The notes beneath the pieces were generated by a model. The model searched no databases. It was not told the origin of the DNA and saw nothing but the letters and a program-made list of their open reading frames with translations. From the NCBI GenBank assembly GCA_044892505.1, contig CM097882.1:449562001-449605602 (forward strand): 43,602 nucleotides of DNA, written 5' to 3'. This stretch comes from Schmidtea nova. Its lineage: Eukaryota. Made by a program: the position numbers and the translations under genes. How positions within the stretch are numbered: position 1 is the first letter of the stretch; each line of letters starts with the position of its first letter. Below are positions 2,508-39,575 of the stretch, piece by piece.

Positions 2508-2627
2508 TGTTAGAATATGCGTATATATATTTGAAATTAATTAAAAGATTGATAACAAATATAGTTTGTTTTATTAAATAAATTTACGATCAACGTGAAC
2601 TTTTTGAAATTAGATATTGCGATAACA
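2508..2627 (+). repeat. 5' LTR (120 bp)
   Basis: TGTTAG...ATAACA; matches 6293-6417 except at one local change. Confidence 0.95.
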
Positions 2628-2629
2628 AT

Positions 2630-2644
2630 TGGCGACGAGGATGG
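2630..2644 (+). promoter_or_regulatory. Primer-binding site, tRNA-Ser(GCT) type
   Basis: TGGCGACGAGGATGG lies 2 nt after the LTR and is complementary to the 3' end of eukaryotic tRNA-Ser(GCT). Confidence 0.85.
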
Positions 2645-5600
2645 AGAAAATTCAATTACAAGATCCAGATACAATCGAAGACTGGTTCGATAGACTAGAG
2701 CTGTTAATGGCAACAGACAAGAAGTATACGAGTGCAAATGCAACCGCACATTTGCTCACATTTGCTGGAGCAGAGACTTACAGTTTAGTCAAGCAGTTAG
2801 CCTTTCCAAAAAAACCAAAAGATCTGTCAACAGAAGAAATCAAGAAGTTGATAATAAGACATGTTGTACCAGTTAATTTAGAAATCACAGAGAGGAGCAA
2901 GTTTCACAGTTTGATAAAGGAATCAAACGAGAGCAACAAACAGTTTTTGCTCAAGGTTCAAGCTCAAGCGGCAAGATGCAATTTTGGAGATCAGATGGAG
3001 ATACAAATGAGAGACAGAATCATCGCCGGAATTAATAATACCGTTTTAAAGAAAAAGCTTTTGGAAGTCGATGACACTTCATACCAGAATATACGCGAGA
3101 TCGTAGAGAAATCAGAAGACTTGGATCGCGCCATGGCGAATGAAACCAATTGTCTATATTCGAAGAGAAATTATTCCGATAGGCTAGGCCAGAATTCAAA
3201 GCCTAAGGATAATATGAAACAGAAAGGATCAGCAAACATGAGCTGCTTCTCATGTGGTGGTCCACATCTCAGAAACAATTGCAAGTTTCGCAGTTCCAAG
3301 TGTTACAACTGCAACAAGATTGGTCACACATCCAAAGTCTGTAGAGCTCAAAAACGAAAAGAGTCACTTCAAAGCAACTATGTGAAGTATAACGAAGATG
3401 TCAGCACAAGTGAACAGTTAGCACTGTGGTCAGGTTCAAGCCAATTAATTCAAGTTTTAGATTTTGGAGAAAGAAAAGTAGAATTCATTATCGATACGGG
3501 GTCGGTAGTTTCATTTATGCCATTGAAATTAGCCAAAGAAATTGACAAGAAGTTTAAGTTAATCAATTGTGATATGATAGTGAAAGGAGTTACGGGTGAC
3601 AAACTAGAAATACTTGGAGAATCTTCAATGACAATAAGACATGATGATAATTTAATTACTGTTAAGTTTATCATTACAAGAAACAGTCCTTGCATCTTAG
3701 GGCTCAGAGACATCAGAAAATTAAGAGAAACAATCGTGTTGCAAACAGAGCTGGAAACAGATTTCAAAACATTGATAAAACAATGTGGTCAGAATAAAGG
3801 TGGATTCAAGACGGATCCTGTGAATTTTGAATTAATGTCAGACGCAGTACCGATATTTGAAAAAGTAAGACATTTGCCATATGGAACTCGAGAGGGTGTG
3901 AAGAACGCACTTGAAGAACTAGAAAGAAACGATATCATTTACAAAGTGGAATCTAGTGCATGGGCAACACCTATGGTTGTCGTAAGTAAGAGCAATGGTA
4001 AATTTAGATTATGTGGTGACTATAAAGTCACTGTGAATAAATTTCTTAAGCAGCCAGCATCAGTTACTTCACAGCCGGAGGATATATTTGAAAAGACGAC
4101 TGGTGCTAAGTATTTTAGCAAAATCGACTTGAAGGACGCATTCCTGCAGCTACCGATTTCAAAAGAAACACAAGAACTTACAACGTTGCACACGATGTGG
4201 GGATTATACTCCTATAAATATCTACCGTTTGGATTGAAGAATTCTCCCGGTTTGTTTCAAATGACAATAAACGGAATTATAGAAGGGTTACGAGATTGCT
4301 ATGCATATCAAGATGACATATTAGTATTCGGTGCAACAGAAAAAGAACACGACAAGAATCTTTATCAGTTACTGCAAAGATTTATGAAGTACAATGTGAA
4401 GATTAATGTAGACAAATGTATCACGAAAGTCAAAACATTACCATTTCTGGGATACATCATATCTGAAGACGGAATTATTCCAGATGAAATGAAGTATAAC
4501 CCGATAGCTGAAGCACCGGATCCCAAATCTCAAGAAGAATTGCGATCATTGCTAGGATGTCTACAATATTATAGCAGATTTATAAAAGACTTTGCCGATA
4601 AGACAAGAAAGCTACAATCGATATTAAATGACTCTGAATTTAGATGGAGCTCGGAGAACTCAGAATCGCTCAGATCGATTATTTCAGAAATAGTGAAGGC
4701 TAAGCCACTGAAGCCGTTTAGGCAGGAATCAAAGATTGAATTGATAGTGGACGCTTCTGAGTTTGCTATTGGAGGAGTACTAGAACAAGAAGGCTGTCCG
4801 GTCTATTTTATATCTAGGAAATTAACCAAAACGGAAGCAAACTACTCTCAAACTCAAAAGGAAGCTTTAGCCATCGTATGGGCTGTGGACAGATTACACA
4901 AGTTCTTATTTTGTAGACCATTTGTTATAATAACTGACCATGTCGCATTAAAGTACATTTTCGACAGTGGCTCATCGGCTGCCAAGGCAACCTCAGCCAT
5001 GTTGCAAAGATGGGCGCCAAAGCTTAGTGCGTATAATTATGAGATCATTCATCGAAAAGGTAAAGACATCCCACAAGCAGATTACCTGTCTCGATATTCA
5101 ATGCTCGGTGAGGCAATTCAATCAGATTGTTTATTTATCCAGTCACTCCCAATACCAAGAGACAGTCTAATTGAGGAATCTCGAAGAGTCTATGGGCCGA
5201 TTTTCAAGGCGGTCAGAAATGGGTGGAACACGAGTCACAAAAAGAAATTTCCTGAGCTATACTTAAAGCGAGATGAGATATCCATTGCGGCAGATGGAAT
5301 CATTTGTTGGAAAGAACGTAGTCTCATACCACCAAGTCTACGAGAAGAAATGATTAAGCATCTACATTCCGGACATATCGGCTACGACAAAATGATTTCG
5401 TTGGCCAGACTCATATGTTGGTGGCCAAATATTGACTCAGATGTCAGACAATTTACTAAAAATTGCACAAATTGCATCACGAACAAAGTCAATACGCATC
5501 CTGATTGGAGTCCTTGGCCCATAGCCTATCAAGTGTGGCAAAGAATACATGTGGACTATTGTGGTCCATTCTTAAGTAAATATTATGCTTTAATAATAAT

Positions 5601-6354
5601 AGATGCTCATTCAAAGTGGCCGGAAGTATTTTTTACAACCTCTGCAAACGCGGATTTTACGATAGTGGCATTGAGAAAATGTTTCTCGAGAGAAGGAATA
5701 CCGCAAGTATTCGTCTCAGATAATGGCACACGCTTCATTGCAGAGAAGGTATCTAGTTGGTTAAAGAGTATTGGTACATCTCAAGTGTTTACTCCTCCGA
5801 GACATCCACAGTCTAATGGTCTGGCCGAAAACTTCGTTAAATCTCTCAAAACGGCTATTTTAACAGCTCAGAAAGCAACGAAAGAGGAATTAGATGAAGC
5901 GGTAGACACATTTTTATTATCTTATCGTAACTCACAGCATGCAACGACAAAACACCGACCTTCTGAACTATTCAAGAAAAGAATACTACGCCATCCTATG
6001 ATCGAGCCGGCGAAAGTCCTATTCTGCAAAGGCACGATGCAGGACATCCAGCATGGAATCATTATGGACAACAGTTCAAAGAAAATTGTAAAGGTATTAG
6101 ATACGACAGACGGAAGCGTTCACAGGCGTCATGTTGATCAGATAGTATTGGAACCAAAGAAAAAATATTTCAATGAGTCAGCAAGTCAAATATCACGAGA
6201 CAGTGAGGACACGGATAGAGCTAGTGACGGTACAGGAAATAATGATCAAACCGAATACAGGATAGCGTCAGACGAGAAAATAAAGGAGAAGGTGTTAGAA
6301 TATGCGTATATATATTTGAAATTAATTAAAAGATTGAAATTAATTAAAATATAG
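2641..6354 (+). CDS. Gag-Pol polyprotein (2 CCHC knuckles, protease, RT, RNase H, integrase)
   Basis: CFSCGGPHLRNNC, CYNCNKIGHTSKVC, IIDTGS, YQDD, VDAS...ITDH, HSGH..CTNC, HVDY/VSDNG/LAEN. The frame is uninterrupted; first ATG is 2641 (the track starts at an upstream TTG). Confidence 0.95.
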   Translation: MEKIQLQDPDTIEDWFDRLELLMATDKKYTSANATAHLLTFAGAETYSLVKQLAFPKKPKDLSTEEIKKLIIRHVVPVNLEITERSKFHSLIKESNESNKQFLLKVQAQAARCNFGDQMEIQMRDRIIAGINNTVLKKKLLEVDDTSYQNIREIVEKSEDLDRAMANETNCLYSKRNYSDRLGQNSKPKDNMKQKGSANMSCFSCGGPHLRNNCKFRSSKCYNCNKIGHTSKVCRAQKRKESLQSNYVKYNEDVSTSEQLALWSGSSQLIQVLDFGERKVEFIIDTGSVVSFMPLKLAKEIDKKFKLINCDMIVKGVTGDKLEILGESSMTIRHDDNLITVKFIITRNSPCILGLRDIRKLRETIVLQTELETDFKTLIKQCGQNKGGFKTDPVNFELMSDAVPIFEKVRHLPYGTREGVKNALEELERNDIIYKVESSAWATPMVVVSKSNGKFRLCGDYKVTVNKFLKQPASVTSQPEDIFEKTTGAKYFSKIDLKDAFLQLPISKETQELTTLHTMWGLYSYKYLPFGLKNSPGLFQMTINGIIEGLRDCYAYQDDILVFGATEKEHDKNLYQLLQRFMKYNVKINVDKCITKVKTLPFLGYIISEDGIIPDEMKYNPIAEAPDPKSQEELRSLLGCLQYYSRFIKDFADKTRKLQSILNDSEFRWSSENSESLRSIISEIVKAKPLKPFRQESKIELIVDASEFAIGGVLEQEGCPVYFISRKLTKTEANYSQTQKEALAIVWAVDRLHKFLFCRPFVIITDHVALKYIFDSGSSAAKATSAMLQRWAPKLSAYNYEIIHRKGKDIPQADYLSRYSMLGEAIQSDCLFIQSLPIPRDSLIEESRRVYGPIFKAVRNGWNTSHKKKFPELYLKRDEISIAADGIICWKERSLIPPSLREEMIKHLHSGHIGYDKMISLARLICWWPNIDSDVRQFTKNCTNCITNKVNTHPDWSPWPIAYQVWQRIHVDYCGPFLSKYYALIIIDAHSKWPEVFFTTSANADFTIVALRKCFSREGIPQVFVSDNGTRFIAEKVSSWLKSIGTSQVFTPPRHPQSNGLAENFVKSLKTAILTAQKATKEELDEAVDTFLLSYRNSQHATTKHRPSELFKKRILRHPMIEPAKVLFCKGTMQDIQHGIIMDNSSKKIVKVLDTTDGSVHRRHVDQIVLEPKKKYFNESASQISRDSEDTDRASDGTGNNDQTEYRIASDEKIKEKVLEYAYIYLKLIKRLKLIKI
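6282..6292 (+). promoter_or_regulatory. Polypurine tract
   Basis: AAAGGAGAAGG directly before the 3' LTR. Confidence 0.85.
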
Positions 6355-6417
6355 TTTGTTTTATTAAATAAATTTACGATCAACGTGAACTTTTTGAAAT
6401 TAGATATTGCGATAACA
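6293..6417 (+). repeat. 3' LTR (125 bp)
   Basis: Direct repeat of 2508-2627. Confidence 0.95.
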
Positions 6418-6540
6418 ATTTATGTAGTTTATTTTTTATTTATTTAATAAATATGTAATATATATATATATATATATGATAAAAATTTTTTGGGCATTTT
6501 TTTTACCTGATGTATAAATGGGCATTTTTTTACCTGATCC

Positions 6541-8599: not shown

Positions 8600-10204
8600 A
8601 TCAATCATTAATTGAAAGGTCTATAGTCTCCGCCGAGACTTTTCGGAGTTTCCCAAGGATTCGAGCTTTTTGTTACCGCTTCCGACAAGTGCGCACTACA
8701 TTGCTGTTCGCCATTTCGTTTGGTGATTGTCAACTGGGTTTCTATTTCGTTGGGTTGAGACTGTAAGTAATTCTATCTGTACCGGGAATAATTCCAAGGC
8801 AGGGAATCTAGCTTAAGTGGTGGCATTGCCGACACAATGACGAAATCCACCTTCATTTGCGCGATTTCGGCGTTGCGATTCCGAATAGTTAATTTTAACG
8901 TTCGTATCTGGAGCGCATCTTCGGCTACCTACTCGTGCAGCAACTTTATCTGTTTTCTCATCTTCTCGGTGCCGTCCACGTTCATCCACGTAGCTTCGAT
9001 CTTTCAGCTCCGAGAGCGAAATTTCGTTCCATCATGGTCAGGAGCTCGCGCCAGAAGAGTTTCCTTTCCTCTTCCATCTCAGCAAGGCAGATCAATAATC
9101 GCCTTAGGCTTCTGTTTATTTCTGTCATCTGTTTCATCATCAATTCCATTTTGGCTTTCATTTCTAATTAAATAAATAAAGCATATATCACAATTTTTCA
9201 CGAGTGCCTCTCTTTGTCTTATCCATAGCTCTCATAGTGTCTGCAGCTTTAGTCAAGTTATATCTCGCGTCTTCCATCCATTCATTTCTTGATATCTCTG
9301 TTGTTTCAGGTTTGAAAGTAGATTTACATTCCGTTAATAAATTGTCTTTAATAGTGATGAGCCTGTAGCGCTCTGTTGATTGATATTTATACTGAACTCT
9401 ATTCTAGGTAGAAGTTCATGCCAGTTTCTCTCTTCATACCCACATGCCAATGTCGCTGTAATAAAATCTCTTATCGTTCGTATGGCTCGTTCAGCTAATC
9501 CATTTTATTGGTGCTGATAAAGTGAGCTGAATTCCCGTTTAATTCCAAGTTTCTGTAGTCTCTGTCTTAGAAAATTCCCTTCGAACTTGTGACTTCTATC
9601 TGTTAAAATTCTCTTTGGCTTTTCAAATCGATTGATCCAACTATTAAGTATTGTTTTGAAAATTGTTCATTCGTCTTGCTTTGTGATTGCGGTCAAAGAC
9701 ATCAATTTACGAAACCGGTCCACCCTAACTACCATATATTTTTATGGTGTCTTTCTCCACGTAGATATAATCCATAGCAATCTGTTCTAGGAATTCAGAG
9801 CTACACCTAGTGATAAATATTTCCTTGGTTCAAGTCTGATCGGTCTTTCTCTTAGAGCAGATATCGCAACTTCGTAAACAGAGCTTAATTGTTTCTTGCT
9901 TCTTCAGCCAGTAAAATACCTTCCCCATATAATGGAATAGTTTCTTAACTCCAATACGACATAGCTCTTTATGTAAGGTTGTTGTTAATAAGCCTGCAAA
10001 AGTTTCTGGAACTAACCTTAAAATATTATTGTTCTTTCTACTGTTATTAACTCTCCATAAATTCGTGTATGTTTTACGTTAAATGGGAAACAATTTCTTC
10101 CTTCCTGTGTACATCCATTTTCCAATATTTCTTGGAGCTCTCGGAACCTATCGACCTTCTGCTGTTGCTCCAATACCTTTTCCATAGCTTTTGTTTTTTG
10201 AATA

Positions 10205-13250: not shown

Positions 13251-13520
13251 TTTCTGCTCCCATTATTCGAAAGAATTCATCACATATTGTTTTTGACATG
13301 TATGATGTGTTTCCAGAACCACAGTTTCCATACTTCAGTATATATGCTGTTCAATAATAATTTTGTATAAAATAATTTTGCATTTGATAAAAGCATATAT
13401 TATAATAGGTAATAGTAAAAATTTAATCAGAATTATTAAAATATTCTCTATTCCCAGCATCCCTGAGGTTAAAAAGGTATTAGTCTATATCTGCTTGATA
13501 CTTATACATCATTAATATTA

Positions 13521-13724
13521 TTAATTTTCTGATAATTTGTTTATATCTATCTGTTTTTTTATTATTTTTTTTGTTTTAATTGATGTAGAATTTTTTAATA
13601 ATTTTGTTTAAATATTTATTATTAAATATTTAATCAGAATTATTAAAAAATTCTACGTCAATTAAAACAAAAAAAATAAATAATAAACAAACATATGGAC
13701 ATAAACAAATTATCAGAAAATTAA
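13521..13724. repeat. ~200-bp AT-rich imperfect palindrome (foldback/MITE-like)
   Basis: TTAATTTTCTGATAATTTGTTTAT...TTGATGTAGAATTTTTTAATAATT is mirrored by AATTATTAAAAAATTCTACGTCAA...ATAAACAAATTATCAGAAAATTAA; centre ~13620. Confidence 0.85.
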
Positions 13725-13867
13725 TGTTATATCTATGGATAGTTAATTAAATTAAATAAATAAATTACCACAATTCAAAAATCTATTTATATATAAATAA
13801 TATTAAAACAAATTATATAATTCATAATACTAAAACAAGTTTTAATATTATTAATTCACATATAACA
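13725..13867 (-). repeat. 3' LTR (143 bp)
   Basis: TGTTATAT...ATATAACA terminal inverted repeat; purine-rich AGACAGGGGAA precedes it on the - strand, right after the integrase stop. Confidence 0.85.
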
Positions 13868-18722: not shown

Positions 18723-19085
18723 AGTATTCCCGATATAATTTCATTGTACAGTAATAGCCAAACTGGTGGCGAATTACCGTATTTTATAGGTAAACAGTAT
18801 TGATCAGGCTGGTTGAAAACTATTGGAAGATTTGCACTTCCACTACTTAAGCGACTGGGTAGTTTTGGAATGAAAACTGCTAGAGATGTTATAATGAAAG
18901 ATCAGAAAATTTTGCCTTCATTGAAAACGAATGCTATGGAGGCTGTATCCAAAGCGATGCCGTAAATTTAAAATATGTTTTCCAAAAATGAACCGGAACC
19001 TGAACCGGTAGGACCAAGACCCAAAAAGGATAGAAAACGTATAAACAAACGAATGAAAGGTCATGGAACTATATTTGAAGAATGA
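18720..19085 (+). pseudogene. Small virion core/membrane-lytic precursor-like protein (~121 codons, 3 internal stops)
   Basis: QTGG, QY*SG, amphipathic WLKTIGRFALPLLKRLG and a K/R-rich tail; its stop overlaps the capsid ATG (ATGA). Confidence 0.7.
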
Positions 19086-20301
19086 TTTGCGGTAAATCTG
19101 AATTATGTATTTTTGATCGACCAAGCCCCCAATCAGTTATTGAATATGGGGTGTTTGAAGATGTTTTTCCAATGAATTCTATTACAGATAGTAGAAATGA
19201 TGTTGAATTTTACATTAATGGATCGGCAACCGAATATTTGGATTTGAACGATACTTTATTATCCGTTACTGTCAAGGTTCTAGATAAAGATAAAAATAAA
19301 TTAGATGATGCGAGTGATGTAGTGCCTAATAATTACCTGTTTCATACTTTTTTCAAAGATGCGATTCTTGGATTTAATAATATAAAAATTGAGGGTGGAA
19401 ACAATACATATGCACACAAGGCCATAATCGAAACTGTTTTAAGTTATACTAGCGATACAAAAGAAACATGTCTTACTCCAATGGGATATGGTTCATCTGA
19501 TGATAGAAAAAGTGGATCAAGAAATCTAAACTTTTCAACATGTGTTCATCATTACAACTCGATTTTATGGATCAACCTAAATACTTACTTCCCTGAGTTA
19601 ATGTACATATTAGATTGAAGAGATCTGATTCTGCATTATCATTGAAATCGGCAACTGGGAAACCAATAATCCAATTAGTAGACGCTAAATTAATGGTTCA
19701 AAGAGTTCGATGTGAATCTTCAGTATTAGACGGTCATCAAATTGGTTTAAATAGTAAACATGCAATTTATCCTCTAAAATCAAAAGAAATCGTATCATTT
19801 GCAATCGGTAAATGGGCATCATCATTTTACAAGGAGCAAATATTTGGAGATAGAAGAATGCCTAATTTCATTCTTGTGGCTTTTCAAACTGAAAATCAAT
19901 ATAACGGATCATACGCTGAATCTGCATCTTCATTCAAACATTTCAATGTGACTTCATTATCGTTATCGAAAAATACCGATTTTCGAGAAACTTATACTCA
20001 AGATTTTGAAAATGATAATTTTAGTGCCACATATATGCAAAGTCTTGTCCGAAATTTAGGATATTTGGATAAAAACTTGAATTGTGGTATAAGTCTGGAT
20101 GAATTTAAAACTAAATATCCATTCTTTACATTTGTTTTGGCTCCCGATTTCGATTTGAATCAAAGTCAAATCCCACAAAACGGTAATTTAAGGCTAGATA
20201 TAAAGTTTGCAAAACCCATTGATGAACCGATTCATGGAATTATATATGGAGTTTTTGAAAATGAAGTACAAATTACTGCCAATCGAACAGTATTGGTTTA
20301 A
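19082..20301 (+). pseudogene. Major capsid protein (double jelly-roll, F54H12.2-like); frameshift ~19510, stop ~19594
   Basis: KSELCIF..P..Q, EFYING..EYLDLN, FMDQPKYLLP*V, FKHFNVTSLSL, GNLRLDIKFAKP. Confidence 0.85.
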
Positions 20302-20357
20302 GCAGAGCTCAAACATTATTAGTTTAAGCAAAACATAAACATTACTAGTTTGAGCAG

Positions 20358-20363
20358 TATAAA
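20358..20363 (+). promoter_or_regulatory. Candidate TATA box of the protease gene
   Basis: TATAAA ~40 nt upstream of ATG 20399; weak evidence in AT-rich DNA. Confidence 0.35.
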
Positions 20364-20398
20364 TGACCAAAGTTATTATCATTATTATAATTATTATC

Positions 20399-20778
20399 AT
20401 GAAGTAAGTTTTTTTTAATTGATTAATTATTTATTTTTAATTAGTTCTATTCAGGTATTACAACAAGGTAAAAAACTATTGGGGAATCAATTTATTGGAG
20501 TATTTCCATTAGATAAAATACCTTATTTGAAAATGAATCAAGCCATCATTGTAAATACTCAGACATCTACTTTGGGTGGTGAACATTGGATTGCAGTTTA
20601 CGTGAAACCAGATCGAATGCGTGCATTTGATCCCTTTGGATATTGTTATCCGAATTTACTTTTTCGAAAACTGCAAACTATTGGTAAACCTATTGTGTAT
20701 AATAGAATTCGGTATCAACATCCATTAACAATCACTTGTGGTGAGCATTGTCTTGCATGGTTGAAATCAATGTTATAA
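20399..20778 (+). CDS. Adenain-like cysteine protease, spliced (20399-20403 + 20445-20778, 112 aa)
   Basis: FIGVFPLD, IVNT, GEHW, FDPFG, Q....TCGEHC. A GTAAGT..TAG intron restores MNSIQVL; AATAAA follows at 20791. Confidence 0.82.
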
Positions 20779-20810: not shown

Positions 20811-20915
20811 ATGTCTTGTTATTTTATCGATATTTATGGATATAATGAAATGGGTGGAACAACAATTAAGGAATTATGTATTATGAATGTTAATAATATT
20901 TTCACACCTCAATAT
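20811..20915 (+). pseudogene. Truncated start of a further Polinton ORF, possibly DEDD exonuclease-like
   Basis: MSCYFIDIYGYNEMGGTTIKELCIM, cut off by the tandem repeat. Confidence 0.4.
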
Positions 20916-21137
20916 TTGTGTTAAAAAAATTTGTGTTAAAAAATTTGTGTTAAAAAAATTTGTGTTAAAAAAATTTGTGTTAAAAAAATTTGTGTTAAAA
21001 AAATTTGTGTTAAAAAAATTTGTGTTAAAAAAATTTGTGTTAAAAAAATTTGTATAAAAAATATTTGTGTTAAAAAAATTTGTGTTAAAAAAATTTGTGT
21101 TAAAAAATTTGTGTTAAAAAAATTTGTGTTAAAAAAA
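20915..21137. repeat. 15-bp tandem repeat (AAAAAAATTTGTGTT), ~15 copies, within the Polinton end
   Basis: Seen directly. Confidence 0.95.
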
Positions 21138-21870
21138 ATATTTTGAAAAAAATAATTTGAAAAAAATTTTGGCTCGAAAAAAAATTTGAAAAACAAAATT
21201 TTTGGCTCGAAAAAAAATCTGAAAAAAAATTTTGGCGCGAAAAAAAAATACCCTTCCCCGAGGGGAATGTCTTTGTTCTTTTTTTTCCGCCCACGCGATG
21301 AGTCATAATGTCTTTGTTCCCGGCTCAACACATCTACCTACTTTTAAGAGATTTATTTTTCATTTAATAATTAATTTAATTTTTTTATAGCAATTTCGAT
21401 AATTCTGAAGGCTCAACATTAAACTTTCGGGAAAACAATAAACCAAATTTGTAAAAATTATTTTTTTAATGAAAGACAATCAAGTTTTGCAAGGCTTGGT
21501 TTAAGAAAGAAAAACTAGAAAAAAAGTAAGTTTTATTGGTTAAAATTTAAAAATGTTATTACAATTGGATTCAGCACCATATCGTTCCAAGACAGATTTG
21601 GCCTAATAAAATCAGCACTGGATAATGAATTAGAAAAAGATGGATACAAAAATCTCAAAAATTATAATCAGCCTATCCATCGCTTTTTTCCAAAATGCTG
21701 CAAAAATAGATATCTTTGAAGAATAATGTTATTAATGTAATAAAATAATAAATTTTACTTTAGTTTCTTACTTTATGCGAATATAAATCCTTTTTATGTT
21801 GATAAGTTACTAAAAAAAGTCATATTTAAATGATAAATTTAAGTAAATTTCTTACTTAATACAAAGAAAT

Positions 21871-25371: not shown

Positions 25372-25771
25372 ATTCTGAGCCATCAACCAAGGGTCAGTAA
25401 TCGACTAACAACTTAACATTTGTTTGCCAGAATCAAAGATAGCAGCCGATCAAGTATAGCAATTGATCTGTTATACGATTTTCTTTTATTTCAACACCTT
25501 TTTTGATTCCTTGGCTGTTTTTAACGTCTATTTTCTGTTTCAACTATTTACAAAAATACACAAGGTTCATTTAGATTAAAATATTTACGCTTAAAAACTA
25601 TTTTACTATTTTAACAGATTCTTATAAATAATAGACGAAGTTTAATAACAACAATAATATTATACAAATTGAATATATTGGACAGTTTTAATATAGATTA
25701 AGTATATGGAATTTAGACAGATGTATAAAATGCATATTTATATCAAATGAAAAAAAATACATTACTGAAGA

Positions 25772-26821
25772 ATGTCAAAATTGTCCAATATTAGTCCAGA
25801 AAAGAAAAAGGAGCCGTTTGAATTGAGAATTGACGACGTTATAAGAAAGTTGGTTCATTTTAGCTCGGAAAACTCACCAAAATTATCTTACGAAGAATGT
25901 TTGGCTATATCGTTAGTAGCGCAATCTCTTTTTGCAAATGAAAATACAATGCTAGAACTGGTCGCACCAATATATGTTTGCGGCGATATTCACGGTCAAT
26001 TTAGGGACTTATTGAGATTATTTGACATGTGTGGATTTCCTCCAAATAAAAGATTTCTTTTCCTCGGAGATTATGTTGATAGGGGAAATTATGGTCTAGA
26101 GTGTATTTGTTTGTTATTCAGCTTGAAAATCCGATACCCAAAAGACATTTTTTTATTAAGGGGAAATCATGAATGCGAAAGTATAAACCGATTCTATGGT
26201 TTCCGCGACGAAATTAAGAGTAAATTCTGTTCCACGAAATTATGGAGAGCATTTCTAAAACCATTTGATTATTTACCGATCTGTGCAACGATAGATAACA
26301 GTATTTTTTGTTGTCACGGCGGTTTAAGTCCATTTATGCTGGATCCACAGATAACTTCTCTTAGAGATTTTGTGGATCATATTAAAAGACCGTGCAATGT
26401 TATTTTAGAAGGTTTAGTCTGTGATATACTTTGGTCTGACCCGACGGATCTCATTGATGGTGAGTTACCCCCTAATGGATGGGAGGAAAATGAAAGAGGC
26501 TGCTCTTGGACCTTTGGTTACGATATAATTGAAAAATTTTTAGATAAATTCGATTTGGATTTAATTGTGAGAGCACATCAAGTTGTACAAGATGGCTATG
26601 AGTTTTTTTGTAATAGAAAATTGTTAACAGTTTTTAGCGCTCCCAATTACTGTGGAAAGTTTGACAATGCAGGTGGTGTTTTTCAATTAGAAAAGAATTT
26701 CGATACACCCCATGGAACGCCTCCTATTATTGAAGGGAAATTTTTAATATTGCAACCCAATTATAATTTATCAGATCAGTTTCGCAATTTAAAAAAATGT
26801 AATGGGAAATTTATTAACTGA
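25772..26821 (+). CDS. Ser/Thr protein phosphatase, PP1 catalytic subunit-like, intronless, 349 aa
   Basis: GDIHG, GDYVDRG, RGNHE, HGG, LWSDP, RAHQVVQDGYEFF and SAPNYC are all intact. Confidence 0.95.
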   Translation: MSKLSNISPEKKKEPFELRIDDVIRKLVHFSSENSPKLSYEECLAISLVAQSLFANENTMLELVAPIYVCGDIHGQFRDLLRLFDMCGFPPNKRFLFLGDYVDRGNYGLECICLLFSLKIRYPKDIFLLRGNHECESINRFYGFRDEIKSKFCSTKLWRAFLKPFDYLPICATIDNSIFCCHGGLSPFMLDPQITSLRDFVDHIKRPCNVILEGLVCDILWSDPTDLIDGELPPNGWEENERGCSWTFGYDIIEKFLDKFDLDLIVRAHQVVQDGYEFFCNRKLLTVFSAPNYCGKFDNAGGVFQLEKNFDTPHGTPPIIEGKFLILQPNYNLSDQFRNLKKCNGKFIN

Positions 26822-28817: not shown

Positions 28818-29539
28818 ACCACTTCCATACTATCTGAAGTCAGTCCGGCCCATGAGCTGTGCTGGCGGAAGTAGCCTACGTAGATCGCTGTTCGATTGAG
28901 GTCCATCAACTAGCCAGCCCATATTTCTATTTAAAGTTAGGCCCACACATCTATGATCACTTCATCCCATACGTTGATTTTGGGTAATAGTGACATGGTC
29001 AAGGGCAAGGACTTTTCGAAGTAAATCCACGTCTAGAATCCTATTACATTTTTATTGAAATGCGATACGGTATTCAAAGACGCAATTGAATATTTTATTA
29101 TAGTATAATATTTATATTTATTTATATCAATCTACATAACTCTCACAACTACACAAAAGCTTTCAAAATTATAAATCCAACTCGTAAATCGTCATCGCTC
29201 ACATGAACATCTTCTTCACCTCATCACGAAAGAAATCGCGAAGTTATCTAAAAAATCTACTTTATAAAAAGCTTCCAACTAGCAACTCAGAGTGTAATAG
29301 AAATTCTCAGATTGTATCAGAATATAAAAATTATAGCTGAAATTATTCAGTTTAATTTCACCTTAATTGAAGAATTATTCCCAAAAAATCTTTTAATTTT
29401 GATCTATAATTTTGAGTATGCGAAATTTCCAAATGAATTACCTCGAAAATCTTATTTATATCTTATTTGAAAAATTCGCGTTATGATTCAAAACTTCCTT
29501 TTTATAAATGTATAATTCTATTACAAATAAAAAATAATA

Positions 29540-30266
29540 TGTAGTGCCTCGGATTTAATTATGACATTAATTTAATAATTAAATTATTAATTTAGTATGA
29601 TATTAAATAAACATTTTTTCCTTTTTGTTTTAAATAATAAATAAACCTTCCTTTTTTACTTTTTCAAAAAATCCAACATGGTCCAAGAAGAACTCATTAT
29701 TTTCAATTCAAAATCAAAAAAGAAGTCAAATGAAATATTTTCAAATCCAAACGTTGTGACGAATCCGAGATCTGTGGAAATACCGAGTGAAAAGAAGCTA
29801 TCTGAATCGAATATTTATAAACTATCGGATTGTGTCAGTAACAATCATCAGTCATTGAATACGGGAATTCTTTCATCTTCATCTTAGTTATGTACTCCGA
29901 TTGGAATGGCAAATTCTCATTTACTCCTACAATTTCAAAACGATCCCCAATATTTCTCGTTCTTAAATACTCCTAATGAGTCTTCGATTTTCAGTAGCTG
30001 CAATATGAGTCAGGTTAATTAATTTTCTGATGTCGGTCTAATGGATGATAAACAGAATCCGCAATCGTTTATACAGAGTGAAACCAATAAAGAACTCAAC
30101 CAAAAAACCATCGAATCCCAAACACAATATGTGTAATGCACAAACAATACTGAATCCCAGCACAATTAATCAAAACCAACGGGCTAGGCTGTCAAAGGTG
30201 TCATTAATGTAAATGTTGAATATGTTATTTTTATCAGGCTTATATTAAATTGATTGTTTTTCTATA
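29540..30266 (+). repeat. 5' LTR (~727 bp)
   Basis: TGTAGTG...CTATA (CTACA in the sister copy), followed by PBS TGGTGTCAGA at 30269 (tRNA-Leu type). Confidence 0.8.
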
Positions 30267-33200
30267 ATTGGTGTCAGAGACGACAAAAGTATTTTTTTGA
30301 TTTCTTCTAGAAAGCTGTTTCATTATTTCTATTATATAATTGTCCTTAAGACTTTTATAAATTATTTAATATTTATTACATTGTTATCTTTTGATTGTTA
30401 TTTTGATGTCATATTAATGTCATATCCCCCAATAACCAAAAAATGTCTCCTTTAAATGCAACACAACGACCCACATAACAGTTCGCCACAACAACATTTT
30501 ACACAAAATTCGCGTCATCTCTCATTTCATCAACGATCTATCAAAACACTTTTTAATAGACCATAAAGAATTTTTATCCCCTATAACGGAATTCCCATCG
30601 CGGATACTTTCACTATCCCAGCAAATTCCATAATTTCTCTGCATTCGAGCAAGAAGGGTGCCAGAACAAACATCGACCATAACTCCTCCAACCCTATAGG
30701 CGTAACTCAATTGATCTTTCTTGACTCGGACGGAACACCATCTTCTTGGTTCCGCATTTTCGAAGCACGCACAAGTGCTACTCCCAAATTAAGACAAGAG
30801 CTCCTGTTAGACTCAATACCTAATGAATTAATGTCTAAATTAGGCTCCCAAATATCTGACGCCTTAGACTCAGAAACACCATATGAGTCGATCAAAACTG
30901 TGATCCAAAAGAAATATTTACCCACCCACACTTCAGCAATAGCAAAACTATCGAAGCCAACGCCGTTCACCGAACAAGTCCCTTCAGCTTTTTTATCTCA
31001 ATTAGTTCGCGAGCTCAAGGCCGCCAATGCTGGTCTATCGAAGAACACTGATCTCTTATGCCACTTTTTTAATAGCATTTCCTCATCATGTCCAAACATC
31101 ACTTCTCGTCGTCGATTCAGATGATCCTTTTCACTTGGCTAAAGTTGCTGACAAACTGTTCACGAGAACACCTATCCAAAATGTACCCTCTTCAATCGCA
31201 TCCGCCTCAGATCCATCACTACAGGAACATATATCTTCTTTGACAAAAGCGGTTGATGCGATACATAATTCTTCTCAACTAAATTCATATTCCCAAAGAA
31301 GCGACAAATTGAAATCCTATCCTCCTCTGATTTGTTTTTTTCACAAGAAATTTTCATCTGCCGCTCGAACATGTCATATCGGATGTTCATGGCAAAATCC
31401 TCCTTCGACTCTGAGTGTTATCGCCATTTGTATCTACCACAACATCTTCGGTTTACACGCACAAAAATGTCTTTCTGGTTGCACTTTCGTAAGCCATTCA
31501 TCAAAAGAATCACACGACAAAAACTATTCCAATTCTCCCCAAAATAAATAGCTCCGCTGTCTGTCAACCCTGGATTTTGAGGCGGCGTCCTTGCGATCAA
31601 CAACATTTTCACCGTTGAAGCAACTTTTGATTCCAGCCCATCAATTCATATTCTCATTGATTCCGGCTCATCATTTTCAATACTTCCAACGACTTTCACA
31701 CCAGACTTCAAATCTCCGTTCACTGTCTTGGCTGCCAATAGCACACCAATTCAATATTTAGGAAAAAAAGAACTTTCATTCACAATACCAACATTAGACT
31801 CAACTTTCACTCACATTTTCGACATAGCAGACACGATCCATCCAATATTAGGCTCCGATTTTTTCTGCAAAGAATCCATTATGGTAGACTGCAAAAACCG
31901 TCGTCTGTTCACTATAAAACAAGACGACACATATACAGAGACAAATTCACCACTGCCAAACGTAGTAACAGTTTCAACTCAGACATCTTCAGTGCCGCAA
32001 CTCAACTCAATTCAACAGGATTTAACGACAACACTTGACCAGCACACGTTGGAAACTGATCATACAGTCAGTCCAGACTCAATGAACGACATGATCAAAT
32101 TAATTTCAATCAAATATCCAAACCTCATCACAAAATCCGCTACCATACCACCCACTACCCTATCAACTCACTATATTCACACATCACCATGCATACCACA
32201 ACGCAATCGAACCAGACATCTCTCTTCCACCAAACTCGACGCAGTCAAAGCTGAATTCGTTAGTCTAGAAAACGAAGGCATTATATGTCGTTCATCTTCA
32301 CCATTGGCTTCACCAATACACGTAGTTACAAGGAAAGACGGATCTTTCAAAAACTCAACCAAGTAACAGTCCACGACGCATACCAAATACCACTCATAAA
32401 AGACTTAATAAAACGTTTTCAACAATCTTTCGTGTTCTCAACTATAGACCTCTCGAAAGCGTATCACCAATTTCCCATTCATATTGACGACGTCCCCAAA
32501 ACCACGGTAACTACGCCATTTCGAAATTTTGAATACATGTTCAAGCCTTTCGGCCTCAGAAACGCAGCTCAGTAATTACAACGCTTCATAGACACAATGT
32601 TTCGAGACGTCCGTCACACATTCGCATATCTCGACGATATTATTATAGCGTCACCTAATCGAGACAGCCACACAGACGATTTGAACACGGTCCTCGACAT
32701 ATTGAACCGTCACAATTTACAGATCAACATAAATAAATGCCGTTTTTTTCAAGAGCGTGTCAGATTCCTCGGCCATATACCTTCATCCAAGGGTTGCGAA
32801 CCTTTCCCAGAAAGACTTCACGTAATCTGCAGTTTTCCATTGCCAAACACTGTGACACAACTACGAAGTTTCTTAGGCATCGTCAATTTCTGCCACAGAT
32901 TCATTAAAAACGCGTTTCACATCACAGCACCTCTTTCAGCACTGAACACAGAGAAAAAGAATTCCATTATCAATTGGTCGATACAACAAGTGAGTCATTC
33001 AACAAAGTCAAAGACAATATATCTAAAATTAACACTATTTACTACCCTCGTCACCACCTTCCATTCAGCCTCACAACAGACGCATTCAACATTGCTGCAG
33101 GCGCAGTCCTTCACCAAATTTAAGACAATTTGTCACTACCAATAGAAATTTTTTCAAGGAAATTTTCATCGGCAGAGTCAAAGTACAGCGCATTTGACAG

Positions 33201-34700
33201 AGAATAACTTGCAATTTTTCTATCTGTCAAATACTTTAGTCACATTTTAGAAGGAAGGCAATTCACGATCTTCACCGACCACAAACCTCTCATCCACTGC
33301 TACACCATAAAAGAACCATCGAACAGAGTACATCGTCAGATAACATATCTATCAACTTTTGACATAAAATTCGTTCACGTCTGCGGCAAGAACAACGTAG
33401 TCGCCGACTACCTTTCTAGAAATATTTCAGCATCTATTACATCTACTCCAGTCTTTAGTCAAGATACTCTATGTTCAAATCCACCAACCTCAGAAGATCT
33501 CGTTCGCTTCAAAGACTCGCTTGATATAATAGGCGGTATACATTACGATACAACACTCTCAGACCAATTCTACACTAATCGCTTAGAAACGAAGCATTCT
33601 TCGCGGTTCATAATATACACCCAGGAATTATGTCCACGTACCACCTTATACGACAGAAAGTCACCTGGTTCTCATTATTCAAAGACGTAAAACAGTGGGT
33701 GTCTGAATATACAGGCTTCCAACAGCCCAAAGTGAATAGATATATTAAACCACCAATCACCCCATTCCCGACGGAATCAAGATTCGACATACTCCACATA
33801 GACCTAGTAGGCAAACTCCCGGCAGATGACAGATTCTGTTACATACTGACAATGATTGATCAGAAAACACGCTGGTTCGAGGCAATTCCAATTTCTGACA
33901 TCACCGCAAAAACGGTTGCACACGCTTTAACATCCACCTGGTTTTCACGTTATGGAATCCCAACCGCTATATTCACAGACCAAGGGACATAATTTGAATC
34001 GGATCTTTCCGATCATCTTACAAACAGTCTCGGCATCAAATATTTACGCACAAGCTCCTATCACCCGCAAACAAATTGTCTTGTTGAACGCGCTCATCGG
34101 ACCTTGAAATCGTCCATCAGAATTCTCTCAACGTCAACCTCATGGGTCAAAACTTTACCATTTATTTTATTGGGATGGCAAAACACACCAAATCGCTCAA
34201 GTGGTGTGTCATCTTCACAACTTTTATTTGGATCCAACATCTTCATGCCTAACGAACTCATCGACCTCTATAATGATTCACCACTAGACGAAATCAACCT
34301 CACACTCAAACATTTTTTGAGTCTCGACACAAACCCGTCATTACCATACTCCACATCATACAAACCGTATATACTACAATCGCTTTCTTCTGCAACCCAC
34401 GCATGGATGAAAAAACTCGACTCATCAAACTTCAAACCTAGATACAAAGGTTCATTCCGTATCATCGAACTGTACAAAAACCCACCAAAACTTGAAATTG
34501 ACAACAACCACGGAATGGTCAACCTATCAAGATTAAAACCATCTTTTTGTACTCTCGAGCAAGATGAAGTGCCAAATAATCATATCACAAAAGAAGATGT
34601 CATTGACGAAGACATTCAAGAAGACACGAAACAACTGACGACCATTACAAACACGTCTAATATCCAAGGTCCTCAAGATAATCCTCCATTCCCTTCTAGA
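29540..34700 (+). mobile_element. Ty3/Gypsy element (CsRn1/Boudicca-like gag), pseudogenised, lacking its 3' LTR
   Basis: 5' LTR, PBS, gag with CX2HX9CX3C motifs, LIDSGS protease, YLDD, RNase H, and integrase HIDLVG/FTDQG. Confidence 0.92.
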
Positions 34701-35736
34701 AGTTTTATGTCCTTAAAGAAATTTGTCGGGGCAATTTTTGCTATGTGTAGAATGTTGTTTGTGGCATACGGTGATGTTAAATTTTTTGTTTGCCATTGAA
34801 AGTGGGCTTGGTGAATTCAAAATTTTGAAGGTGTGGTTTTGGAGGTAAAAATGGGTCTGAAAAGGTGGGCGGAACTGCTTTTGTAATTTTATATATGGGG
34901 AAATGAAAATTGCTTTTAAAAAATTTCAATAAAATTGCAAAAAAAACATTATAAATATTTTACGAATGAGAGATATAGATGACAAAGTTAAAGATTTACA
35001 TGAGAAAGGTATGAAACTTACGTTTGTCACTTCTGACAACAATTGTAGAAAAACAATCAATTTAATATAAGCCGGATAAAAATAACATATATTCGACATT
35101 GACATTGATGGCATCTTTGACAGTCTAGCCCGTTGATTTTGATTGATTGTGCTGGGATTTGCCATTGTTTGTACATTACACATATTGTGTTTGGGATTCA
35201 ATTGTTTTTGGTTGAATTCTTTATTGGTTTTACTCTGTATAAACGATTGCGGATTCTGACTCATCTTGCAGCCACTGAAAATTGAAGACTCATTAGGAAT
35301 GTTTAAGAACGAGAAATATTGGAGATCGTTTTGAAATTGTTAGAGTAAATGAGAATTTGCCATTCCAAGTGGAGTACATAACTGAGATGAAGATGAAAGA
35401 ATTCCCGTATTCAATGACTGATGATTGTTACTGACACACTATGATAGTTTATACGTATTCAATTCAGATAGCTTCTTTTCACTCGGTATTTCCACAGATC
35501 TCGGATTCGTCACAACGTTTGGATTTGGAAATATTTCATTTGACTTCTTTTTTGATTTTGAATTGAAAATAGTGAGTTCTTCTTGGATCATTTTTATTAA
35601 ATAACGAAGGATATTTTGAAAAAAGTATGTCGAAAAAAAGTGAATATTAAAACAATGCCATCTAAACTCTCATTCGATAATTATTAAATAAGTTAATTAA
35701 TTAAAAAAAAAGAAATTTATAATTTAAGACACTACA
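34700..35736 (-). mobile_element. 5' end of a related Gypsy in opposite orientation (LTR 35736-35044, PBS, leader)
   Basis: TGTAGTG...CTACA then TGTTGTCAGAAGTG; ~570 bp is alignable as the reverse complement of 29678-30285. Confidence 0.85.
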
Positions 35737-39092: not shown

Positions 39093-39575
39093 CAAGACAT
39101 TGAAATTCCCATTCCAAAATATTTTGTGATTGAAACAATACATTGGAATTCATTCCGAAATATAGTGTAATTGAAACAAGACATTGAGATTCCCATTCCG
39201 AAATATTTTGTAATTGAAACAAGACATTGAAATTCCCATTCCAAAATATTTTGTAATCGAAACAAGACCTTGAAATTCCCATACCGAAAGATTTTGTAAT
39301 TGAAACAAGACATTGAAATTCCCATTCCGAAATATTTTGTAATTGAAACAAGACATTGAAATTCCCATTCCAAAATATTTTGTAATCGAAACAAGACCTT
39401 GAAATTCCCATACCGAAAGATTTTGTAATTGAAACAAGACATTGAAATTCCCATTCCAAAATATTTTGTAATCGAAACAAGACATTGAAATTCCCATACC
39501 AAAATATTTTGTAATTGAAACAAGACATCGAAATTCCCATCCCAAAACATTTGATAATTGGAACAAGACATTGAA
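39093..39575. repeat. 43-bp minisatellite, ~11 copies
   Basis: Unit GAAACAAGACATTGAAATTCCCATTCCAAAATATTTTGTAATT. Confidence 0.95.

Follow-up and report, generated by a model that had tools for sequence, protein, structure and literature searches.

The 43,602-nucleotide stretch of Schmidtea nova DNA analysed here (the window) carries on its forward strand a long terminal repeat (LTR; 29540..30266, +) with a subtype-A 5′ portion of ~135 bp, a TG start and a CTACA-type end, which constitutes the 5′ LTR of a lineage-A gypsy element. It is followed by a primer-binding site (PBS; 30269..30283, +), which we take to match tRNA-Leu, by an AT-rich linker up to the conserved Gag (30284..30479, +) and by a decayed lineage-A gag-pol region (30480..34699, +), whose 3′ end and 3′ LTR are missing. 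The gag-pol region is colinear with complete 5.2-kb elements of a young sister lineage and shares 82% identity with them. Pfam searches placed RVT_1 from position 32576 and Integrase_H2C2 and rve from position 33579, i.e. the integrase after the reverse transcriptase (RT), and in the related loci L017 and L033 a purine tract precedes the LTR. With TG...CA LTRs, PBS, RT-then-integrase order and, in these relatives, a polypurine tract, the element is a Ty3/gypsy LTR retrotransposon.

The LTR itself is ~720 bp long (709-731 bp in solo copies), starts with TGTAGTG and ends with CTACA, and a search of the window's own genome (G000, 1.25 Gb) yielded 1,197 candidate copies, 40 of which were scored. 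Similarity broke off sharply at either end in the first 30 loci, and of the 19 copies with both ends readable, 14 had a 5-bp target duplication on their flanks, either perfect or differing at one position. These sharp ends, the TG...CA termini and the target duplications identify the repeat as an LTR that occurs mostly in solo form. At L017 (1115-1467), another LTR copy adjoins the same flanking repeat as the left LTR of the window (29177-29540), at a near-equal position and in opposite orientation. Further features of the window comprise another gypsy element (2508-6420) with a 1242-codon gag-pol frame and direct LTRs of ~125 bp (95% identical), a Polinton-like remnant (19079-20778) with double-jelly-roll-like ORFs and an adenovirus-type protease (Peptidase_C5, E 4e-5), a 350-codon intronless PP1-like phosphatase frame (25769-26821; Metallophos, E 3e-41), a near-perfect, MITE-like palindrome of 206 bp (13520-13725), and two tandem arrays at 39093-39575 (43-bp unit, 11 copies) and 20914-21169 (15-bp unit, 15-17 copies).

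A second copy of the LTR (35044..35736, −) belongs to a lineage-B element, of which it forms the 5′ LTR. Together with its PBS (35041-35027) and leader (34704..35043, −), which carries an in-frame ATG near 34796 on the minus strand, this second element runs in the opposite orientation, ends at the start of gag and is joined to the left element near 34700, so that the two copies form an inverted pair (29675-30296 versus 35014-35594). The preliminary description of this DNA had referred to them as LTR copies, which is accurate insofar as the repeat is a true LTR with TG...CA termini and target duplication; however, they are not the LTR pair of one element, because they are inverted, each is accompanied by a PBS, their 5′ subtypes and leaders differ, and they share no common target duplication. 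Likewise, a reading of the pair as an inverted-repeat (TIR) transposon was rejected, since both arms are LTRs with a PBS. The junction at 34690-34704, which sits on the palindrome CTTCTAGAAG, is one of three loci, together with L147 (=L005) and L131, at which an LTR end is joined to inverted internal sequence; such joints may have arisen by autointegration or through deletion between two elements in inverted orientation.

Inspection of the reading frames revealed that the LTR itself contains a long reading frame. Its frame (29678..30266, +) starts with an ATG ~139 bp inside the LTR and runs to the LTR end. As noted in the preliminary description, this Ser/Asn/Gln-rich frame is present in both copies, which resemble each other only from about the start codon onward, after ~130 bp of divergent sequence, and its stops fall at different codons in each copy. 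The frame begins at ATG 29678 on the left and at ATG 35591 (minus strand) on the right; the left one is interrupted at 29885-29887, 30020-30022 and 30265-30267 and by frameshifts near 30104 and 30217, the right one at 35441-35439 and 35342-35340. The length of 140-170 codons given at that stage was an underestimate, as the frame stays free of stops for ~196 codons, up to where the LTR ends. In a sample of 54 copies chosen by similarity to the window copies, it was open from codon 3 to the end in nine, while none of 5000 shuffled sequences reached 196 codons (median 61, maximum 160).

Comparison of an open copy (L019) with P0001, a non-transposon protein of 643 aa, revealed 44% identity over residues 242-438 (E 1.9e-19), so that the earlier proposal of captured host sequence, for which a search for a host homolog had been recommended, is supported. 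The corresponding stretch of the left LTR (29703..30243, +; 3′ limit approximate) matches P0001 residues ~242-438. P0001 was the only credible match in two libraries, and an exhaustive search recovered it again together with one match that was dismissed as compositional, namely P0002, a repetitive protein of 2445 aa (E 1.6e-4, 23% identity over five stretches). A search for homologs of near-equal length to the frame gave none among 44 candidates, and P0001 used as query matched only itself among 7993 scored sequences. Pfam reported no family above cut-off for the ORF pieces of the window, for L019, for P0001 or for the LTR-borne host pieces (cargos) of L033, L039 and L128; UBAP2L- and Ataxin-2-like leads for P0001 (UBAP2L-like, 0.79) stayed below the Atlas bar of 0.9, and PF12478 matched neither in G000 nor in the controls, which makes that search uninformative.

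At the DNA level, the upstream part of P0001 matches a single place in G000, L116, which holds a broken, non-LTR copy of the gene. Ahead of the capture point this copy stays colinear with P0001, and no LTR end occurs there. From codon ~9 of the LTR frame onward, L116 and the LTR stretch share 83-84% DNA identity (84% for 29703-29969). The L116 copy (8611-9760, minus strand) is intronless and decayed, with an RGRG motif near its start, and as exact-match contigs for it were found in run X1 only, among the runs listed, it may be polymorphic. Contigs from four runs (three samples, one study) contain a second paralog whose read depth corresponds to a single copy. It differs by ~12% and has short, intron-like inserts, one of which begins with GT on the coding strand; this fits an intron-bearing parent gene. 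The captured piece spans no known intron, and three queries did not recover an intact donor gene from G000, where it may be unassembled or may have been missed. The older LTR copies are nearer to P0001 and retain a 13-residue host stretch that is absent from the younger ones, which points to a transfer from host to LTR. On these alignments, the frame between about its first seven codons and the last few codons of the LTR is host-derived, with a content that differs between LTR variants.

The comparison with P0001 also clarified the nature of a 42-nt GT...AG segment in the left LTR (30014..30055, +), which 14 of 55 copies lack, among them the right one, and which had initially been read as an interruption of the frame or as the split of an exon pair. 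This reading was abandoned because the segment preserves the frame, most copies have it and it has a counterpart in the host protein, and judging from this alignment its loss is a derived GT...AG deletion. In nine of the 55 copies, two of which are tandem neighbours, a longer deletion that begins at the same GT removes 63 nt (30014-30076); both counts come from an enriched sample, for which the right copy had been used as bait. As both deletions are flanked by GT...AG and by a CAG repeat, either splicing or a polymerase slip could explain them. Moreover, both of these large shared deletions are multiples of three, compared with 8 of 31 private indels.

The window-type cargo is not the only one found in this position. 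In the young sister lineage, whose Gag is ~69% identical to that of the window family, the slot holds the second finger of a nuclear-receptor DNA-binding domain (zf-C4, PF00105, E 1.8e-7) with HNF4-alpha as best solved match, and another LTR variant carries the N-terminus of LYAR (zf-LYAR, PF08790, E 1.7e-7), with the ATG at LYAR's own start position. The zf-LYAR family matches 50 places in the genome among 124 that were scored, and all 12 that were fetched lay inside the LTR type of the window. Two further cargos (L033 type and L039/L128 type) have no assigned family, every Atlas lead for the L128 cargo being below 0.9. The L033 type retains the first six and the last ~35 codons of the window type and therefore looks like a second capture nested within the first. 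In a gag tree of 39 copies, each of the two cargos, that of the window and that of L033, is spread over two clades with strong support, although the bootstrap is not fully settled, which suggests that LTR content moves between lineages. At L008 (433-1511, minus strand), an LTR with extended PBS continues in frame into part of an acyl-CoA ligase (AMP-binding, E ~1e-17); this fusion is probably an LTR-mediated retrocopy and indicates that the LTR family of the window does fuse with host mRNA.

To what extent the encoded amino acids are under selection was assessed from substitution patterns. The dN/dS ratio was 0.82 over all pairs of 55 copies, a value dominated by neutral decay, and 0.65 between an old and a younger LTR copy; the dN/dS analysis suggested in the preliminary description thus returned values below 1 and in this respect some constraint, but a weak one, far above the ratios between lineages of 0.14 for the Gag core and 0.16 for RT. 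Variants common to at least five copies comprised 21 synonymous, 35 non-synonymous and no stop changes (n = 56), as compared with 71, 240 and 38 among singletons (n = 349; Fisher p 0.009). A similar synonymous excess appeared in two of five control frames (p 0.02 and 0.009), whereas all five control frames had two to seven stop-related variants in the shared class, versus none in the real frame. For the LTR-coded part of the young lineage, the shared variants (5 synonymous, 17 non-synonymous) resembled the singletons (18 and 53). The open frame is thus protected, the amino acids hardly so.

An overall ratio near 0.8 and the 45 of 54 copies with a broken frame are what one would expect if the LTR frame were a passive relic, i.e. 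recently captured host coding sequence that is still open and has never been translated by the element. We regard this as highly improbable, because unrelated captures are all in register with the same ATG and PBS frame, shared deletions are in frame and shared variants create no stops. The mild synonymous excess in shared variants and the ratio of 0.65 could alternatively reflect a cargo kept for its function, with the host-like tail on Gag (here the Ser/Asn/Gln low-complexity region, elsewhere the nuclear-receptor or LYAR pieces) steering particles to RNA granules or to the nucleus, or helping to evade silencing. Such a role would suit the derivation of both named cargos from nuclear or nucleic-acid-binding proteins and the spread of successive cargos to tens or hundreds of copies each. 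It nevertheless appears unlikely to us in view of the repeated shortening and replacement of the cargo, the HNF4-like piece consisting of a single finger with two of its four cysteines gone, the singleton-like variants of the young lineage, and the sub-threshold UBAP2L-like lead and blank Pfam result for P0001.

The protection of the frame is easier to understand when its continuation is considered. In copies of lineages A and B (L002, 267 aa; L033, 213 aa; L047; L049), the LTR frame reads on through the PBS, which it translates as L-V-S-E, into the linker. The linker, frameshifted in the window, is open and in register in the best copies of all three lineages. In the young lineage, single frames of 1574-1683 codons extend from a first Met 160 codons before the PBS through Gag, and in three of these four long-frame elements the two LTRs are 98-99.8% identical. 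Among the window's own lineages, every copy seen has a break somewhere between the LTR ATG and the Gag core, and only 3 of 11 copies of lineage A and 2 of 7 of lineage B keep the register between PBS and Gag, a proportion that is expected of decayed copies but is no proof. Most copies of the young lineage (L057-L084, L140-L143) stop Gag right behind an A-run at the gag-protease border, which presumably resembles a −1 frameshift site, and a few read through it in one frame.

Alternatively, Gag might start downstream, and the LTR frame might be a separate upstream or accessory ORF, or a first coding exon spliced from a donor behind the PBS. Indeed, a splice-donor-like GT motif lies 3′ of the PBS in 28 of 41 junctions, so that splicing may also link the LTR frame to some other sequence, and the in-frame ATG just before the conserved Gag of lineage B implies that the LTR start may not be needed there. 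Furthermore, only 14 of 30 young copies are in register across the linker; the 16 others all lose it at one T-run, and they are scattered over the tree and mixed with in-register copies, which fits repeated slippage. Set against these observations, every readable LTR variant lacks a stop within the LTR, the linker is preserved as described above, and the in-register young copies examined, with the exception of L081, have no Met between PBS and Gag core, so that we consider a separate ORF very unlikely. For similar reasons, the stand-alone accessory protein analogous to sag or nef that had been suggested at first is not supported: there is no stop in the LTR, the frame continues over the PBS, its content is exchanged and dN/dS amounts to 0.65-0.82.

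Taken together, we favour the explanation that the LTR frame is an exchangeable, host-derived N-terminal extension of Gag that is kept mainly since any stop or frameshift in it would cut off Gag, and judged by the comparisons at hand we consider this likely. Translation of Gag would begin at the LTR ATG and cross the PBS, as the single frames of the young lineage illustrate, and with such a start everything between ATG and PBS must be open and in register. If transcription starts upstream of the ATG and polyadenylation occurs near the LTR end, the slot would lie within a long R region; by template switching of the kind described by Tan et al. (PMC5131818), the reverse transcriptase could then jump to a host mRNA packaged alongside and return, so that the central part of R is exchanged, and the switched product would be copied into both LTRs. 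Only stop-free, in-register captures would still make Gag in cis and spread. Captures may later be shortened by deletions that keep the frame, among them the two bounded by GT...AG, and may pass between gag lineages by recombination.

A more far-reaching version of this explanation, which we consider doubtful, would see in the family an autonomous gypsy element with its LTR as a standing exchange slot, which serially samples host regulatory fragments, presents them on the capsid protein, shortens them through cryptic splicing and retains the helpful ones; solo LTRs in their hundreds would at the same time spread host-domain cassettes, each led by an ATG, through the genome. Irrespective of this, LTRs are usually treated as non-coding, and the one described here would hold the start of Gag, in a slot that took at least three identifiable host fragments (from a P0001-like gene, an HNF4-like finger and LYAR) as well as two without assignment. 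That Gag must still be made would provide a simple selective reason for in-frame gene capture, and the series of cargos offers a natural test set for the question of whether captured domains help a retrotransposon. The 50 zf-LYAR matches illustrate that such LTRs are also a source of false gene-family expansions in genome annotation.

Genes within LTRs are known from MMTV (sag) and lentiviruses (nef), where they lie in U3, have their own stop and serve a fixed function; the window frame is likewise LTR-coded, but has no stop in the LTR and its content changes. In yeast Ty1, the 5′ LTR already contains the beginning of GAG, so that the PBS is read as protein; the LTR-coded part is short. Gag initiation upstream of the PBS would thus be common to both, whereas Ty1 is a copia-type and the window family a gypsy-type element, and we know of no indication that the LTR-coded part of Ty1 is swapped host sequence. 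The portion of the Ty1 literature considered here reports a 53-nt 5′ UTR and cis-elements in the GAG region (PMC3592414). An ORF0 upstream of gag-pol is described, in the relevant section of another account, as a separate ORF (PMC3485330), and the available portion of a report on LTR/Gypsy expansion in planarians makes no mention of LTR-borne host fragments (PMC11410931). In the literature searched, with subscription papers and supplements outside its scope, no paper was found that describes interchangeable pieces of host genes within an LTR whose frame leads into Gag.

The capture of host mRNA by LTR elements as such is already known, but has been described as replacing internal ORFs. The sections consulted of Tan et al. 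2016 (PMC5131818) describe LTR-mediated retroposition, in which template switching fuses pieces of host mRNA into an LTR element. As in the present family, these pieces are partial, stem from multiple genes and are re-amplified; according to the same sections, however, the captured piece takes the place of internal ORFs and yields a non-autonomous element, whereas here the cargo is part of the LTR and precedes Gag in the same frame, gag-pol is kept and the cargo spreads as solo LTRs. A second point of reference is the planarian giant gypsy element Burro/GYPSM1, which, in the excerpted description (PMC6431247), also combines host-like domains with Gag in one polyprotein. As portrayed there, Burro exceeds 30 kb and has an N-terminal Gag with whole regulatory domains downstream; in contrast, the window family has an LTR-to-LTR period of 5.2 kb and carries its cargo before Gag, within an LTR of 500-730 bp, in fragmentary and exchangeable form.
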